A stretch of 64,000 nt of DNA from Octopus vulgaris (taxonomy: Eukaryota), in the NCBI GenBank assembly GCA_951406725.2, contig OX597830.1:21452001-21516000 (forward strand), written 5' to 3'. This document shows, piece after piece, positions 2,817-62,705 of this stretch. The translations under genes and the position numbers were made by a program. The notes beneath the pieces were generated by a model. That model did not search any database. It was not told where the DNA came from and saw only the letters and a program-made list of their open reading frames with translations. Numbering within the stretch: the stretch's first letter is position 1; each line of letters begins with the position of its first letter.

Positions 2817-3567
2817 AATTAATCAATATAGGGTGGCAAAAAAAATTTTGTAGAATTCTTTTGCCACCAGCGGCCTAGTAGGAAAAAATTAAAATAGTCA
2901 TAGACCATTTTTAAGTTCAACATCAACAATAAAGGAACGGCCATAATAGGCCATTCACCCACTAGAAATAACAGCCAAAGCTTCAACCGCAAATAAAAGT
3001 TAATTCAGTAAACCAGGAGAAAATTTAAAAAACATTTACCCTGTAATTTCTTATACGATATACCGTTTCATCTGCTGATTAATGGTAAACTAACCTGATT
3101 AAATTAAATCAAGCCAATTTTCCACAGGCCCTCAGATTCTTCAGTAAGAAATAGCCCAAGACGGAACAGATATTTTCACGAGGCATTTCCGACGTTGCCA
3201 AGTTTATATCTGACCTAAAATTTTCAAATCGTCGCATCGCGCCAAATTTATCGGCAGCAATATATAGCCGTCGATTCCATTACGGAATTAACCAGAAAAT
3301 TCATAATTTTGACGATTTGAAAATTTTAGGTCAGATATAAACTTGGCAAGTCGGAAATGCCTCGTGAAAATATCTGTTCCGTCTTGGGCTATTTCTTACT
3401 GAAGAATCTGACACGATTTAATTTATCAGGTTAGTTTACCATAATCAGCAGATGAAACGGTGTAGATATACAGGGTAAATGTTTTTAAATTTTCTCTGTT
3501 TACTGAATTAACTTTATTTGCGGTTGAGCTTTGGCTGTTAAGTGGGTATGGCCTATTATGGCCGTCG
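2815..3567. mobile_element. Retrozyme-like 492-bp-unit element, locus 1: one full unit on minus (2815-3308) plus an inverted, deleted partial copy on plus (3311-3567)
   Basis: Near-identical to the unit of the 41030-42820 array; both ends abut (TA)n-rich tracts. Confidence 0.85.
3046..3152 (-). ncRNA. Type I hammerhead ribozyme (CUGAAGA core, GUA cleavage triplet)
   Basis: AUUUCUUA-CUGAAGA-AUCUG...CAGAU-GAAA-CGGUAUAUCG-UA-UAAGAAAU: 8-bp stem I, 5-bp stem II base, near-palindromic stem III. Confidence 0.85.
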
Positions 3568-4032: not shown

Positions 4033-4100
4033 TATGTATATTAATATATATATATGTATATGTATATATATATATGTGTGTGTGTGTGTGTGGTACAGAC

Positions 4101-4153
4101 GTCCTTACCCTCGAAACACGGAGTAGATAAAGCAGGGACAACTGATGAAGGAG
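4101..4153 (+). ncRNA. 5'-truncated permuted hammerhead motif (family P)
   Basis: gtcc-tta-ccctc-GAAA-cacg-gagtaga...ggacaa-CTGATGA-aggag, followed by the T-rich family tail to ~4365. Confidence 0.55.
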
Positions 4154-4377
4154 AATATTTTTATGTTGCATGTCTCGTTTCTCTGTTTCTTTCGTTGTTC
4201 GAAAAAAGTTCATTTCTACGTTTTTGTTTTCATGTTTTCGTTTCTCATTGTGCTCAACGCTTTTTTAATGTCCTGTACCCATATATGCATGTATATATAC
4301 ATATATCTGTAGGTATGTACAAATATGTATGTATATATGCATATATTTATATATTATTTATATTACACACACACACG

Positions 4378-10553: not shown

Positions 10554-10766
10554 ACAAATTAATAAATAAAACATATGCATGTATACATACATATATGTAC
10601 GTACCTACATCTAGATATATATATATACATGCACATATGGGTACAGGACACCAAAAAAACGCTGAACACAATGAGAAAGGAAAACATAAACACAAAACCA
10701 AGGAAATGGACATTTTTCTTAAACAACGAAAAAACAGAGTACAAGACATACAACAGAAGGAAAATT

Positions 10767-10841
10767 CCCCTTCTTCAGCCGCCTCTGTTTCATCTACTCC
10801 GCGTTCGAAGGTAAAGGTGAGACGCGATTTCGTTGAAACAG
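10767..10841 (-). ncRNA. Permuted hammerhead motif (family P), one A missing from GAAA
   Basis: ctgtttca..CGCG-UC-ucaccu-uua-ccuuc-GAA-cgcg..ugaaacag-aggcgg-CUGAAGA-agggg; stem I sequence differs from other copies yet pairs at 5 of 6 positions. Confidence 0.65.
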
Positions 10842-10880
10842 TCCTTCCTGCAAAAGCAAGTTAAATAAAATTTGAGATTT

Positions 10881-10939
<59 letters not shown>

Positions 10940-34752: not shown

Positions 34753-34965
34753 TAACATAAATAATATATAAATATGTGCATATATACATACATATATGTA
34801 CATACCTACATCTATATGTATATATACATGCATATATGAGTACAGGACATAAAAAAACGTTGAACACAATGAGAAATGAAAACATAAAAACAAAAACATG
34901 GAAACGAACTTTTTTTCAAACAACGTAAAAAAACAGAGTACAAGACATACAACCCAAGGAATATT

Positions 34966-35040
34966 CCCCTTCTTCAGTTGTCCCTGTTTCATCTACTCCG
35001 CTTTTCGAAGGTAAGGACAAGACGCGATTCGTTGAAACAG
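34966..35040 (-). ncRNA. Permuted hammerhead motif (family P), GUC triplet
   Basis: cuguuuca..CGCG-UC-UUGUCC-uua-CCUUC-GAAA-AGCG..ugaaacag-GGACAA-CUGAAGA-AGGGG; one mismatch in stem III. Confidence 0.72.
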
Positions 35041-35238
35041 TCCTTCCCGCAAAGCAAATTAAACAAAATTTGGGATTTTTTGCGGAGGTGTAAAAGTGTT
35101 AACAAGAACAGGACAGTAAAAACAAAACAAGACAGTAAAAAAATACAAATAAAAACAGTAAAAGACAGGACAAGGAGAATAACACAGTTAAAACAAACGA
35201 TGAGGGCTGTTAAGTCAAGACAATGGAAAAAATTTTCC

Positions 35239-39295: not shown

Positions 39296-39744
39296 GATAT
39301 TAAATTAAAATGGTATACTTTACGGATCTTTACCTTTTGACCTAGCGATTTAAAAAATAATTTTTTGTAACTTTCAAACTTCGTATACTAGTAGACTGTG
39401 TCATATAAAACACCTTTTACTCTTAGCGTTTTCGAGAAAAGTTTATATTTATAAAGTTATTTCGTGTTGAAGTTGTCATATTTCGGTAATTTCAACCAAT
39501 CAATGACGTGTATTCAGCTGAATAAAATTACTGGTGTTGTTTGACAACAATAACTTCCGGCGGTAATCAACATACATATACATACATATATATGTATATA
39601 TACATGCATATATGGGTACAGGACGCCATAAAACGTAAACAACATGAAATACGAAATACGAAAACGTGAAATATGAAGACAAACTTTTGTATGCGAGCAA
39701 CGAAATAAATAAATGGAAAACAAGACAAGTAACATAAAGAACGA

Positions 39745-39819
39745 CCCTTCATCAGTTGTCAGCTGTTTATCTACTACATTTCAAGCAATTCACGCCAATA
39801 TGTGCCTTCGAGAAAACAG
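39745..39819 (-). ncRNA. Permuted hammerhead motif (family P), AUA triplet
   Basis: cuguuu..ACA-UA-UUGGCG-ugaauu-GCUU-GAAA-UGU..aaacag-c-UGACAA-CUGAUGA-AGGG. Confidence 0.65.
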
Positions 39820-40177
39820 TTGCTCCCGCGAACCAAAATAAAATTTGGGATTTGAAGAGGGTCAAAGTTGGTAACAAAAACAGGACATTGAAAACAAACA
39901 GTGAGAGCCGCTAGGCCATACGAAGTAAGGTGGCGAACGCTGGAGAAACAATCTTTGACAGGAGAAAAGATAGGAGAGGAGATAAACAAAAATGCGACTG
40001 GTCGGTGACACAGGCCGAAAGATAAGAAAGATGATCACGTGTGGAAAAAGAAAGGTGGACGACGATCACGTGTGAGCAACGAGAGAGTAAAGGCCGAAGA
40101 CGGAGTGAGTGTACCCATATATGCATGTATATATACATATATATGTAAGTATGTTCTTGTAGGTATGTATGTATAGA

Positions 40178-41031: not shown

Positions 41032-41151
41032 ACAATCAAGGAACGGCCATAATAGGCCATTCACCCACTAGAAATAACAGCCAAAGCTTCAACCGCAAAT
41101 AAAAGTTAATTCTGTAAACCAGGAGAAAATTTAAAAAACATTTACCCTGTA

Positions 41152-41258
41152 ATTTCTTATACGATATACCGTTTCATCTGCTGATTAATGGTAAACTAAC
41201 CTGATTAAATTAAATCAAGCCAATCTTCCACAGGCCCTCAGATTCGTCAGTAAGAAAT
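41152..41258 (-). ncRNA. Type I hammerhead ribozyme
   Basis: Reverse complement of 41997-42103. Confidence 0.88.
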
Positions 41259-41996
41259 AGCCCAAGTCGGAACAGATATTTTCACGAGGCATTTCCGACC
41301 TTGCCAAGTTTATATCTGACCTAAAATTTTCAAATCGTCGCACTCGCGCCAAATTTATCGGCAGCAAATAAATATAAGCCGTCGATTCCATTACGGAATT
41401 AACCAGAAAATTCATAATTAATCAATATAGGGTGGCAAAAAAATTTTGTAGAATTCTTTTGTCACCAGCGGCCTAGTAGGAAAAAATTAAATAGTCATAG
41501 ACCATTTTTAAGTTTAACATCAACAATCAAGGAACGCCCATAATAGGCCATTCACCCACTAGAAATAACAGCCAAAGCTTCAACCGCAAATAAAAGTTAA
41601 TTCTGTAAACCAGAAGAAAATTTAAAAAACATTTACCCTGTAATTTCTTATACGATATACCGTTTCATCTGCTGATTAATGGTAAACTAACCTGATTAAA
41701 TTGATTGTTGATGTTAAACTTAATTGATTGTTGATGTTAAACTTAAAAATGGTCTATGACTATTTAATTTTTTCCTACTAGGCCGCTGGTGGCAAAAGAA
41801 TTCTACAAAATTTTTTTTGCCACCCTATATTGATTAATTATGAATTTTCTGGTTAATTCCGTAATGGAATCGACGGCTTATATTTATTTGCTGCCGATAA
41901 ATTTGGCGCGAGTGCGACGATTTGAAAATTTTAGGTCAGATATAAACTTGGCAAGGTCGGAAATGCCTCGTGAAAATATCTGTTCCGACTTGGGCT

Positions 41997-42103
41997 ATTT
42001 CTTACTGACGAATCTGAGGGCCTGTGGAAGATTGGCTTGATTTAATTTAATCAGGTTAGTTTACCATTAATCAGCAGATGAAACGGTATATCGTATAAGA
42101 AAT
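41997..42103 (+). ncRNA. Type I hammerhead ribozyme (predicted cleavage after 42095)
   Basis: Stem I ATTTCTTA/TAAGAAAT, core CTGACGA 42005-42011, stem II ATCTG/CAGAT with long G-U-rich extension, GAAA 42080-42083, stem III CGGTATATCG, GUA triplet. Confidence 0.9.
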
Positions 42104-42488
42104 TACAGGGTAAATGTTTTTTAAATTTTCTCCTGGTTTACAGAATTAACTTTTATTTGCGGTTGAAGCTTTGGCTGTTATTTCTAGTGGGTGAATGGCC
42201 TATTATGGCCGTTCCTTGATTGTTGATGTTAAACTTAAAAATGGTCTATGACTATTTAATTTTTTCCTACTAGGCCGCTGGTGGCAAAAGAATTCTACAA
42301 AATTTTTTTTGCCACCCTATATTGATTAATTATGAATTTTCTGGTTAATTCCGTAATGGAATCGACGGCTTATATTTATTTGCTGCCGATAAATTTGGCG
42401 CGAGTGCGACGATTTGAAAATTTTAGGTCAGATATAAACTTGGCAAGGTCGGAAATGCCTCGTGAAAATATCTGTTCCGACTTGGGCT

Positions 42489-42595
42489 ATTTCTTACTGA
42501 CGAATCTGAGGGCCTGTGGAAGATTGGCTTGATTTAATTTAATCAGGTTAGTTTACCATTAATCAGCAGATGAAACGGTATATCGTATAAGAAAT
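42489..42595 (+). ncRNA. Type I hammerhead ribozyme (predicted cleavage after 42587)
   Basis: Identical to 41997-42103, 492 nt downstream. Confidence 0.9.
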
Positions 42596-42817
42596 TACAG
42601 GGTAAATGTTTTTTAAATTTTCTCCTGGTTTACAGAATTAACTTTTATTTGCGGTTGAAGCTTTGGCTGTTATTTCTAGTGGGTGAATGGCCTATTATGG
42701 CCGTTCCTTGATTGTTGATGTTAAACTTAAAAATGGTCTATGACTATTTAATTTTTTCCTACTAGGCCGCTGGTGGCAAAATAATTCTACAAAATTTTTT
42801 TTTGCCACCCTATATTG

Positions 42818-42918
<101 letters not shown>

Positions 42919-44945: not shown

Positions 44946-45329
44946 CAAATGGTATTCTTGTTGGTTGTTTGATAAGGGATCGCATTGTATTTAGTGGATG
45001 GCGAGGCAAGTAAAGAATAGATAAGTGTTGGTGCTAGGAAGATTTTAGGGTGTTGGTCAGTTGGTATTTTTGGCGAGGCGAGGGTGATAGGGATGGCGAA
45101 CGTGCAGTCCGGTTGTGGAGAGGGGTGGGCCGGGTGTGTGGTGTGGAGAGGGGTGTGGTCTGTTGTGCCGGTGTTATGATACGATGTTTCTTACATGAAA
45201 GAAGGAGCCGCCACGACAATCAGATTTTGTACCGGTTCATTAGAAGTAGTAGAGTTCGAAGCCAACAGAAATCGATAGCGACTCGCTGTTTCAGGCCTGA
45301 TGTTCGCATCGCTAGTTACATTGTTCAGT

Positions 45330-46845
45330 GGTGACGGCGGCGGTGGCGGTTGCGGCGGTGGCTATGTTCGAGATGGTGGTGGTGTTGGTGGTGGTGATGG
45401 TGGTGTTGGTATTGGTTGCGGGCTAGACGATGTTGTTGTTGTTGTTGGTGGTGGTGGAGGAGGTTTTGTTGCCATTTGGTAGTGCTGGTGGTGGTGAAGG
45501 TGGCATTGGCGGTAGCGGAGGTAGTGGCTATGCTTGTGATGGTGATTGTGGTGGTTATGGCGTCGGTGGTCGGCTAGACAATGTTGGTGGTGGTGGTGAT
45601 AGTGGCGGCGGCGGTAGCGGAGGTAGTGGTTACGCTTGTGATGGTGGTGGTGGTGATCGTGGTGTTGGTATTGGTTGTGGACTAGACGATGTTGGTGGTG
45701 GTGGTGGTGGTGGTGGTGGTGGTGGTGGTGGTGGCGGTGGTGGTGGCGGTAGCGGTAGCGGAGGTAGTGGCTATGCTTGTAGTGGTCATGGTGGTGCTGG
45801 CGTCGGTGGTCGGCTAGACAATGTTGGTGGTGGTGGTGGCGATGGTGTCGGTGCCGTTGGTAGTGGTGGTGATGATGGTGGTGATGGCGGCAGCGGCGGT
45901 AGTGGAGGTAGTGGTTACGCTTGTGATGGTGGTCGTGGTGGTGCTGGCGTTGATGGTCGGCTAGACAATGTTGTTGTTGTTGTTGTTGTTGTTGTTGGTG
46001 ATGGTGTTGGTGCCGTTGGTAGTGGTGGTGGTGGTGGTGATAATTTACGGGGTGGTGGCGAGTGTTGTTGGTGTTGTAGCTAATGGTGTGCGAGATAACT
46101 GTGGTAGTGGTAGTGGTAGGGGTGTTGTGTTGGTGTTGGTGGCGGTGCACGTGGTTGTAGTGGTGGTAATGATGACGGTAGTGGAAGCGGTGGTGGTGTT
46201 GGTGGTGGTTGTGTGGATGGTGACGGTGTTAGTGAGGCTGGTGGCGGTGTTGGTGGTAACGGTGTTGATGGTAGTGGTGATAGTGGTGGTAGTAGTTGTA
46301 GTGATGTTGGTGGTGGCGGTCTTGGTGTCGGTGGTGTTGGTAGTGGTGGTGTTGATGTTGGCGGTGGCAATGTTGGTGTCGGTGTTGGTGGTGGTGATGG
46401 TGTTGGTGGTGGTTGTGGTAATAGTAGTGTTGATGGTGGTGGTGGCGGCGGCGTGTTAGTGGTAGTGGTGGTGGTATTGGTGGTGATGGTTACAGTCAGG
46501 GGATGGTGCTGGTGGTGCGAGTTGATGATAGTAGTAGCGGTTACAGTTGTGTTGGTGGTGCCACTGCCGTTGTTGCTACTGTTATTGCAGGTAGTGGTTA
46601 TTGTTTGCAGTTGTCGGTACTGGCCTTAGTAGTTATTGTTGGTAGCGGTGGTGGTAATGGTGGTGGTGGTGATGCTGATGATGGTGATGGTGGTAGCGGT
46701 GGTGGTGGTGGTGGTGGTGGTGGTGATGCTGATGGTGGTAGCGGTGGTGGTAGTGGTGCTGGTGGTAGTAGTGGTGGTGGTGGTGGTGATGGTGGTTGTG
46801 TTGTTGTTGTTGGTGGTGGTGATCGTGGTTGTGGTGGTGATGGTA
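45330..46845. repeat. Degenerate (GGT)n domain containing a 4-5-unit complex minisatellite (45390-46040)
   Basis: Recurrent ggtagcggaggtagtggYtaYgcttgt and ggctagacRatgtt motifs. Confidence 0.8.
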
Positions 46846-47173: not shown

Positions 47174-47835
47174 GCACACCCACACACACACACACACACA
47201 CACGCATAGCTATTAACACTGTGTATATATGTGTGTGTCTGTGTGTATACACACACACACATATGCTTTATTCTTTTATTCTTTTACTTATTTCAGTCAT
47301 TTGACTGTGAGCATGCTGGGGCACCGCTTTAGTCGAACGAATAGGAGCCGGACTTATTCTATCTGTCTCAGGAGACAGGCAAAATGTGTGTTGTCTCTTG
47401 TAGCGTAAGCAGGAGAAAGAAAGATAGCCGCTGGTCACGTGTGAGCAACGAGTGAGTCAAGGAGGAAGAGTGGGGGAGAGGGAGAGGGAGAGATTGAGAA
47501 CGGTGAAGTTCTTTCTCCTCCTTACGCTAAAAGAGACAACAGACATTTTTGCCTGTCTCTTGTCAAAGCTTGTTCCTCCAGCATTCACCACTTCACCTCG
47601 CAATAACATCAGCTACTATGCACAGTGCGTAGAAGACTGCTCAGGTGGGATAATAAGCTGAGACTTACCCTGAAATAAGGTTTTGATACCGTGTTTAACA
47701 CGTATTTTCTTAACCACAATTCTTAAACCTTATACTTGACTTATTTATGTTCGCATGTTTATATATTTATATATATATATATATACATTAACCCTCCATA
47801 AATCCCAAATTTTATTTTGGTATTTATAGGACCAA

Positions 47836-47909
47836 TTGTCTTCGAAGACTCATATTGTTGTTGAATACCTGAAATGAGAAGTAGATAGACAGCCGACAAC
47901 TGATGAAGG
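47836..47909 (+). ncRNA. Permuted hammerhead motif (family P), most canonical copy; predicted cleavage after 47854
   Basis: UUGUCU..CUCA-UA-UUGUUG-uugaaua-CCU-GAAA-UGAG-aaguagau-AGACAG-c-CGACAA-CUGAUGA-AGG: stems III (4 bp + A-U), I (6 bp), II (3 bp) and extra helix all pair. Confidence 0.8.
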
Positions 47910-48020
47910 ATCGTTCTTTGTGTTACTCGTCCTGTTTTCCACTTTATTCTCATGTTGTTTTCGTACTTCATGTTGTTTACTGTTGGTGACGTTCTGTACT
48001 CATATATGCACATATATATA

Positions 48021-48241: not shown

Positions 48242-48479
48242 CACTGCTACTCGTATACATACATATATACATCTATGAGTATATGTATATAGTCTAGGCA
48301 AAAAAGGCCCTCTTTGGTTGTTTTCTTGTTTGTTTTTATTTCTTGTAGTATTTATATCTTGTACTTTATTTTGTAATTTTATTTGTATCATTTTTACGTC
48401 CTGTTTGTGTCACATTTTGTTCTTTCCTTGTTTTTACCCCTCTGCGAAGTAATGTTCTTTAATTTCTTCGCAGGAAGGG

Positions 48480-48554
48480 CTAGTTCGACGAGTCGTGTTC
48501 TGTCCTCACCTTCGAAACACGCTGGAGTTGAACTAGGGACAGCTGATGAAGGGG
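48480..48554 (+). ncRNA. Permuted hammerhead motif (family P), GUU triplet; predicted cleavage after 48499
   Basis: CUAGUUC..CGUG-UU-CUGUCC-uca-CCUUC-GAAA-CACG..GAACUAG-GGACAG-CUGAUGA-AGGGG. Confidence 0.78.
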
Positions 48555-49269
48555 ATTTTTCCTTGTGTAGTTTGTCTTGTACTCTGTTTTTCGTTGTAAA
48601 AAAAAGGTCCGTTCCATGCTTGTTTTCACGTTTTCGTTCTCGTTGAGTTCTGCGTCTATTTGTGGTGTCCTGTACTCACGTATATATATTTATATATGCA
48701 TGTATATATACATGTAGATGTAGGTACGTACATATATGTATGTATGTATGCATATATTTTATTTATTACACTATTGTATGACTGAGCGCCCTCGCATCGA
48801 TTCGATTCGTTTCTTCTTCTCCCAGTACAGTTTTTATATATAATTATGACACGAAACACTATACCTCTTTGCTTAACTTTCTCTTCTCTCCCTTTCCCGC
48901 TCTCTCACTTCTCCTCATCTCTCTCACAGCCGTTTGTCTTCCTCTATCTCTCTCTCTCCCTCACTCCTCCTCATCTCTCTCACTGCCGGCCAAAATACTT
49001 CCTTTTGCATGCGGCCTACTAACTGTAAACACACGGTTTTCTTGCGCTCCTTGAATCTCTCCTCGTCTAGGTAAAAAAGGCCCTCTTTGGTTGTTTTCTT
49101 GTTTGTTTTTATTTCTTGTATTCTATTTTTTTGTAATTGTATTTATATTTTGTACTTTATTTTGTAATTTTATTTGTATCATTTTGCGTCCTGTTTGTGT
49201 CACATTTTGTTCTTTCCTTGTTTTTACCCCTCTGCGAAGTAATGTTCTTTAATTTCTTCGCAGGAAGGG

Positions 49270-49344
49270 CTAGTTCGACGAGTCGTGTTCTGTCCTCACC
49301 TTCGAAACACGCTGGAGTTGAACTAGGGACAGCTGATGAAGGGG
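49270..49344 (+). ncRNA. Permuted hammerhead motif (family P), identical to 48480-48554
   Basis: Same sequence shifted by 790 nt. Confidence 0.78.
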
Positions 49345-49624
49345 ATTTTTCCTTGTGTAGTTTGTCTTGTACTCTGTTTTTCGTTGTAAAAAAAAGGTCC
49401 GTTCCATGCTTGTTTTCACGTTTTCGTTCTCGTTGAGTTCTGCGTCTATTTGTGGTGTCCTGTACTCACGTATATATATTTATATATGCATGTATATATA
49501 CATGTAGATGTAGGTACGTACATATTTGTATATATGTATGCATATATTTTATTTATTACACTATTGTATGACTGAGCGCCCTCGCGTCGATTCGATTCGT
49601 TTCTTCTTCTCCCAGTACAGTTTT

Positions 49625-49670
<46 letters not shown>

Positions 49671-62370: not shown

Positions 62371-62705
62371 TTAATCGACCACGGAAGGATGAAAGACAAG
62401 GTTAAACTCGACGTGTTTCGAAATCAGAACGTAAAGACCCTATACAAATACTACAAAGCCTATTTATCCTGATGTTTAAACGATTCTACCAGATCGTCGT
62501 CCTGCAGTTAATTTAACGATAGTTTAAGCTATGAAGAAAACAGATGAACGGATATTTAAGGCAGTGTTCCAGCATGGCCGCAGTCAAATGACTGAAACAA
62601 GTAAAAGAATAACAGAATAAAAGAATACTCTACGGAATCTATATAACACTGATCACCGATTCTCAAAATATTCAATTTCTTAGACGTAACATTTAATCTT
62701 TAACG

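Follow-up and report, generated by a model that had tools for sequence, protein, structure and literature searches.

The repeat at 48292–49625 of the window (the whole analysed stretch of 64,000 nt of Octopus vulgaris DNA) is, with fair confidence, a partial-tandem insertion of a non-coding repeat with units of about 790 nt, likely a non-autonomous Penelope-like element (PLE) and designated family P. Each unit carries a predicted self-cleaving hammerhead ribozyme (HHR) of block order S-G-C, in which stem II appears to be formed with an upstream strand through a four-way junction. The repeat anatomy, the copy number, the ends in (TA)n, the 5′ truncation, the inverted heads and the complementarity and covariation of the helices were observed directly in the genomic copies. 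The split stem II, the four-way junction and a link to the Naiad clade of PLEs, all absent from the initial annotation of this DNA, are the most novel points.

Structure of the Locus

Pairwise alignment of 48292–48842 with 49065–49632 gave 95.4% identity over 569 alignment columns, with seven substitutions, one 18-nt indel and one 1-nt indel. The segments 48397–48735 and 49187–49525 (339 nt) were identical and contained both ribozymes, whose CUGAUGA motifs start at 48543 and 49333, 790 nt apart. The initial annotation, which described two near-identical repeats of ~550 bp plus a spacer, with identical permuted HHRs exactly 790 nt apart and cuts at 48500 and 49290, was borne out in these points, and the same cut sites were derived here (Table 1). 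Its statement that no credible ORF is present also held: in circularised form the unit has no ATG ORF longer than 64 aa and no stop-free stretch above 102 aa.

Table 1. Features of the tandem insertion and of the predicted ribozyme (positions in the window).
Feature	Positions	Strand	Remarks
Upstream 5′-truncated partial unit (pseudo-LTR-like)	48292–48842	+	Adjoins TA-rich flank; ends in short templated junction T5(AT)3A
Ribozyme copy 1	48437–48554	+	Order IV-V-X-interaction-S-G-interaction′-C-IV′
Stem IV, 5′ strand	48437–48441	+	Partner 48550–48554, directly after A9; 95.7% paired; double change in 1 of 5 pairs
Hairpin V, 8 bp	48442–48473	+	Flush between stem IV and G10.1; double change in 4 of 7 counted pairs
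Strand X, predicted displaced 5′ strand of stem II, G10.1 first	48474–48478	+	Partner 48509–48513 (C11.1 last); double change in 3 of 5 pairs
Stem I–II interaction helix	48480–48536	+	48480–48486 with 48530–48536; 72% paired; shifted register in the rows of family Q; double change in 3 of 7 pairs
S block: stem III 3′ strand, U16.1, H17 (GUU), stem I 3′ strand	48494–48505	+	Predicted cut between 48499 and 48500
Predicted cut-to-cut monomer, 790 nt, putative RNA	48500–49289	+	Inferred from CUGAUGA spacing and fold descriptor
G block: stem II 3′ strand, GAAA, stem III 5′ strand	48509–48521	+	Separated from stem I by a 3-nt linker
C block: stem I 5′ strand and CUGAUGA	48537–48549	+	
First preferred 3′ end, predicted internal priming site	48766–48774	+	~+275 from cut; in other copies followed by (TA)n
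Pyrimidine-rich 5′ segment of full unit (“spacer” of the initial annotation)	48843–49064	+	No ORF
3′ part of downstream unit	49065–49625	+	Stops at second preferred 3′ end, ~+334
Ribozyme copy 2, identical to copy 1	49227–49344	+	Predicted cut between 49289 and 49290
(TA)n target array at 3′ end	49627–49668	+	

The 18-nt length difference corresponds to a deletion in unit 1 upstream of the cut, and for this reason the repeat starts are only 773 nt apart. The segment is present in 39 other loci, and its loss was not repeated in the same way at any of them; a duplication of 18 nt in unit 2 was ruled out. Since the unit length differs between loci (754–882 nt), 790 nt is the value of this locus and not a family constant. 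Comparison of the seven differences between the units with other loci showed that in six of them one state was ancestral while the alternative was missing, or almost so, from the other loci, one difference being unscorable. As the differences are almost all private to the locus and the ancestral state is found elsewhere, both units likely derive from one template. The suggestion that more than one round of a template had been copied gains support from these private differences and from five other loci that also cross both cut sites with upstream sequence.

Two other repeats were observed in the window. The one at 41900–42850 (+) contains two copies, 492 nt apart, of a type I hammerhead of canonical form whose stem II is long; it ends in (TA)n and has an inverted head, with an inverted copy near 41150–41350 and a related inverted pair at 3050–3500; it looks like a classical animal retrozyme or a non-autonomous PLE. 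The degenerate GGT-rich repeat at 45300–46800 has stop-free frames of 136–288 codons, one of them Gly-rich with a recurring GYACDG, and may represent an array that arose from a microsatellite or else an exon rich in Gly.

Predicted Fold of the Ribozyme

The predicted fold contains the hammerhead core elements CUGANGA, GAAA and UH joined by stems I and III; CUGAUGA was present in 53 of 57 family P copies and the cleavage triplet is GUU. The block layout S-G-C, which confirms the unusual permuted HHR noticed in the initial annotation, is none of the circular-permutation types I–III (CGS, GSC, SCG), and together with the short I–II linker and the I–II interaction helix it agrees with type SGC. 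Rfam at the gathering score gave no match in the window. A strict whole-fold descriptor matched only the two ribozyme copies in the window and none in 200 shuffled windows, a result which, the descriptor being derived from the same sequence, shows only that the fold is rare by chance.

In 28 copies of families P, R and Q the six-helix model was 89.5% paired, as compared with 40–49% for slid registers, and double changes were found in every helix, including three of five pairs in stem III and two of six in stem I; because the copies come from few related subfamilies, this covariation represents few independent events. In the pseudoknot-free minimum-energy fold, stem IV, hairpin V and the interaction helix form and the catalytic core does not.

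The two possible partners for stem II were counted in 57 of 62 family P, 35 of 35 family Q and 24 of 25 Naiad-type distinct copies. With strand X, the mean number of Watson–Crick pairs out of five was 4.84, 4.40 and 4.50, respectively, against 2.07, 2.06 and 1.33 with the ordinary partner after A9 and ~3.0 with shuffled upstream sequence. The G–C pair at 10.1–11.1 was kept in 54 of 57, 26 of 35 and 21 of 24 copies of the three families. Stem IV in the Naiad-type copies was not above the control (2.75 vs. 2.45 pairs), and T–T mismatches occur at the stem IV junction in family S and in the Beroe Naiad record. Since X pairs upstream, the strand after A9 pairs in stem IV and hairpin V lies flush, the core is predicted to be opened between A9 and G10.1 with a four-way junction, through which stem II is likely completed by the separate upstream strand.

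It is improbable, but was considered, that the motif is a plain type-SGC hammerhead with an extra A after A9, the strand X, stem IV and hairpin V representing an off-state in which the long transcript is kept from cleaving, that is, a two-state switch. With one extra A, the ordinary stem II indeed reaches 96% pairing in the P, R and Q alignment, half of the positions being wobble, and the two registers compete for the same strands. In addition, an extra A between A9 and G10.1, known in a viroid HHR, is tolerated as A10 in CChMVd (PMC3705267), and PLE HHRs can be silent without protein (PMC11167929). Nevertheless, a stem II strand placed directly after CUGAnGA, possible by wobble in P, R and Q, fails in the Naiad-type copies, at 1.3 Watson–Crick pairs of five. 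It cannot form either in the Acropora, Beroe and arthropod records as read by eye (PMC8557442), where X pairs 6/6 and G10.1–C11.1 is kept. Duplex energies likewise favour stem II with X (−4.6 kcal/mol) plus stem IV (−7.4 kcal/mol) over the ordinary stem (−2.8 kcal/mol). Across the subfamilies the covariation supports the split stem II, which is the likely fold; for family P taken alone, a plain SGC register keeps some probability.

Genomic Copies of Family P

The genome searched comprised 2.8 Gb in 227 contigs. The 23-nt core of family P gave 1,324 matches with at most two mismatches, and its reversed control gave none. The first 64 exact matches listed, corresponding to 60 single loci and two pairs, were used as the locus sample. 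The 3′ end lay ~275–280 nt past the predicted cut in 22 of the 60 loci and at +313 to +336 in 32, mostly in (TA)n, so that the two sites together account for 54 loci. The 5′ ends, which are lower bounds, were placed at the cut in two loci, within 100 nt upstream in 11, at 101–445 nt in 28 and beyond in 17, two being unanchored; the insertion therefore extends upstream past the cut in 56 of 60 loci. In 21 of 60 loci the 3′ segment passes to the next unit via the same short junction, which indicates that the junction is templated.

Direct tandems of two ribozymes were found at six other loci, with spacings of 804 (L033), 882 (L034), 800 (L035), 784 (L037), 754 (L175) and 834 nt (L176); in L033 the upstream ribozyme copy is without its 5′ helices. 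These same-phase tandems are on several chromosomes, and no family P array of more than two ribozymes was seen. A one-off local duplication, the outcome that would have spoken against the initial annotation, is therefore not what the six loci with two HHRs in the same phase display. Inverted 5′ heads are common (L014/L032, L021, L023, L024, L033). Partial tandems, inverted 5′-truncated heads and (TA)n targets are hallmarks of Penelope-like insertion (PMC8557442), and family P has the partial tandems, 5′ truncation, inverted heads and microsatellite targets of a non-autonomous PLE. Together with the permuted HHR and the lack of an ORF, these features support the earlier proposal that the family is a retrozyme or a non-autonomous PLE.

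A pile-up of genomic 5′ ends at the cut was not found, the raw counts being five matches (four at the cut and one local variant) against 18 at a control site, which is favoured by TA microhomology. Two candidate observations were discarded: the match at 62412 was rejected as a family member, and joints going back 772–775 nt in contigs of four sequencing runs were not accepted as circle evidence, as they equal the tandem junction, which is also in the genome.

Related Families

Five older, diverged copies of the superfamily, from families R and Q, were seen in the window at 4037–4158 (+), 10762–10893 (−), 34961–35094 (−), 39739–39866 (−) and 47787–47916 (+). In the genome, family Q gave 4,206 first-look candidates, with tandems of 736–741 nt. 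Family S gave 3,627 first-look candidates and is young and non-coding, with other helix sequences, the same plan and a looser stem IV junction; its tandem measures 787 nt (L178–L202, e.g., L196 849–1700). The 5′ end of the family S tandem lies 7 nt upstream of the predicted cut, and the start of L033 of family P likewise precedes its cut by a few nt, which hints at stalling of the reverse transcriptase (RT) in the ribozyme.

These families bear on a very unlikely explanation, namely a SINE-like repeat that carries the motif as a dead relic, with a tandem that arose by local duplication. Many individual copies do have decayed cores, and the activity of the ribozyme is a prediction. On the other hand, families P, Q, R, S and the Naiad-type copies differ in helix sequence and yet keep the pairing and the core, and the same-phase tandems recur on several chromosomes.

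Relationship to Naiads

Naiads have been reported without canonical HHRs, eight “half-core” cases being flagged (PMC8557442). Parts of the 54 published consensuses were read by eye, some record names being inferred from the file order. The split fold was recognised in eight records, namely Beroe, three Acropora, Morbakka, an arthropod and two octopus records, a range of ctenophore, corals, jellyfish, arthropod and octopuses. All six helices were present in the Beroe, the three Acropora, the Morbakka and the arthropod consensuses, stem I in Beroe having only 2 bp; stem IV is weak in the two octopus records. A looser S-G-C arrangement was read in two further records (Euprymna and one arthropod). 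In the nematode section of File S5 (eight families), eight passages contained a clean type CSG with a I–II interaction helix, a type of which only two metagenomic examples are described in the portion of PMC10085705 consulted. In the portions examined, many Naiad records, those of bivalves in particular, showed no permuted motif. Since CSG and SGC share one cyclic order, the octopus form would correspond to this order with its opening in the loop of stem IV, the inserted stem.

In the octopus genome, 954 matches were obtained with a 23-nt motif taken from the octopus Naiad consensus in the literature, and in 10 of 30 loci the Naiad-type motif followed a Naiad RT remnant in the sense orientation. 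A covariance model built from P, R and Q without Naiad sequences gave a full-length match in seven of 17 Naiad-motif loci (E values from 6e-5 to 0.17, which are rough) and in none of five family S loci or two Neptune-like loci. The ribozyme fold of family P was likely inherited from a Naiad 3′ UTR. We lean towards the broader view that Naiads never lost the ribozyme: nematode Naiads would carry it as type CSG and those from ctenophores to octopuses with the core opened between A9 and G10.1 and a four-way junction, outside the six described permutations. Octopus genomes would then hold thousands of copies of several circular-RNA parasites of ~750–880 nt built on it.

Proposed Insertion Mechanism and Possible Source of the Enzyme

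A PLE reverse transcriptase/GIY-YIG protein acting in trans would nick a (TA)n array. It would prime internally, either 275 or 334 nt past the cut, both positions being AT-rich, and from there copy back across the cut site and the fixed junction between units, at this locus over ~1.7 units. A linear cut-to-cut monomer is excluded as template because priming 275–334 nt past the cut would stop copies there, and 56 of 60 loci run on; the template thus runs through the cut. Insertions through the cut site fit equally a religated circle of the cut-to-cut monomer and an uncleaved tandem transcript, and each of the two is given the same probability, a little short of even.

The circle corresponds to a true retrozyme, in which both ribozymes would cut, the 790-nt monomer would be circularised by a host ligase (e.g., RtcB) and the circular RNA would accumulate and be reverse-transcribed by a rolling-circle mode. 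This special case of the preferred explanation is given a somewhat less than even chance. It agrees with insertions that pass the cut and exceed one unit, with the templated junction and with families Q and S, which repeat the plan with a spacing of 736–787 nt; animal retrozymes behave likewise (PMC7229834). The known animal retrozymes, however, have type I HHRs, units of 150–450 nt and often long arrays (PMC7229834), and no array above two ribozymes was seen here; moreover, the single PLE assayed in vitro used mainly uncleaved RNA as substrate (PMC11167929).

No RT/GIY-YIG ORF belonging to family P, as an autonomous PLE would have, was found in the unit or in the loci examined. Tblastn with Naiad and Neptune-like RT against the window and L001–L090 revealed two separate insertions only. 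No autonomous element sharing family P sequence, other than as separate insertions, was found among 30 of 148 GIY-YIG matches, 30 of 152 Naiad RT loci, two 753-aa and two 781-aa elements; as only the best candidates were scored, the parent may have been missed. All Naiad RT matches were broken, with open frames of at most 292 aa at ≥43% identity among the best 150 of 2,725 candidates, and the Naiad-type copies are older than those of family P (nearest-neighbour difference 7.9% vs. 1.4–2.9%). Intact RT–GIY-YIG ORFs of 753 and 781 aa do exist, with a Cys-rich linker, their own canonical-order 3′ motif and no sequence in common with family P.

These ORFs (L171–L174) represent two young PLE families, intact in many copies, whose 3′ ends carry a minimal type-I-like motif starting with UUGA and not CUGA. 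The frames shown have no in-frame start, and a Pro/Thr-rich region lies upstream. A family P copy was found inside the TA tail of one intact element (L172), and head-to-head joins were found once each with a truncated Neptune-like fragment (L107) and a truncated Naiad fragment (L147). The former joins 121–1130 to 1131–1790, 5′ to 5′, with no TA between, and the latter joins 623–878 to 890 onward, 5′ to 5′, with 13 nt between; such joins may reflect the copying of a pair of RNAs into a single break. The recent driver is more likely to be of the Neptune/Nematis type than one of the decayed Naiads: the young families with C-terminal GIY-YIG have a slightly better than even chance of being this driver, and the decayed Naiads found are a possible source to which we give roughly one chance in three.

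Comparison with Known Systems

The non-circularly permuted hammerheads reported so far came with no known host genome, and their blocks were taken to be unbreakable. In the accessible part of PMC10085705, SGC forms are reported from metatranscriptomes only and not from genomes of known organisms, save one bacterial GCS candidate among the permuted types. Family P resembles type SGC of that work in the S-G-C order, the 3-nt linker between stems I and II, the helix, named I there, that connects stems I and II at their far sides, and the intact core. It differs in having G10.1 on an upstream strand and two inserted helices, an arrangement excluded by the block rule, since Eckert et al. (2023, PMC10085705) assumed that CUGAnGA and stem II are separable by at most 1–2 nt. 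The literature search, whose coverage of subscription journals was thin, found the term “type-SGC” in one paper only; it returned no published non-circularly permuted hammerhead from animal genomes or from Naiads, and none with A9 and G10.1 separated by a four-way junction. If correct, a split core across several animal phyla extends hammerhead topology and gives such ribozymes a biological home.

Naiads (Craig et al., 2021, PMC8557442) share with family P the (TA)n targets, partial tandems, inverted 5′-truncated heads and the same predicted 3′ UTR fold. They are elements of 3.4–4.4 kb with an N-terminal GIY-YIG, a CxC linker and a C-terminal RT, whereas family P has no ORF and no DNA similarity to them beyond the motif, only the ribozyme fold being common. 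The presence of this fold, if confirmed, would overturn the view that a hammerhead is lacking in the thriving PLE clade that is the most prolific one of invertebrates.

The non-LTR retrozymes of animals (PMC7229834; 10.64898/2026.07.22.740005) are likewise non-coding tandems with one HHR per unit and low GC, and have been proposed to be non-autonomous PLE derivatives. Family P has such non-coding units with one HHR each, but its HHR is permuted, its units measure 740–880 nt and its RNA is putative, whereas the retrozymes have a type I HHR as in their definition, units of 150–450 nt and circular RNA that has been shown (PMC7229834). In a preprint, Li et al. (2026, 10.64898/2026.07.22.740005) connect PLEs with type I retrozymes and, in the part seen, mention Naiads for their distribution only.

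Poseidon PAc (Frangieh et al., 2024, PMC11167929) is similar to family P in the internal RT initiation, which is predicted for the latter, and in an HHR placed in a tandem pLTR context. Unlike family P it is autonomous and has an HHR of canonical order; its cleavage is dispensable for insertion in vitro, uncleaved RNA being the dominant substrate. The young identical pair at the present locus is a ready construct for studies of cleavage, circularisation and the long-open role of the ribozyme in PLEs. As compared with these systems, the plan of the element is that of an ordinary non-autonomous PLE derivative, and the surprise is the ribozyme topology and its spread in Naiads.
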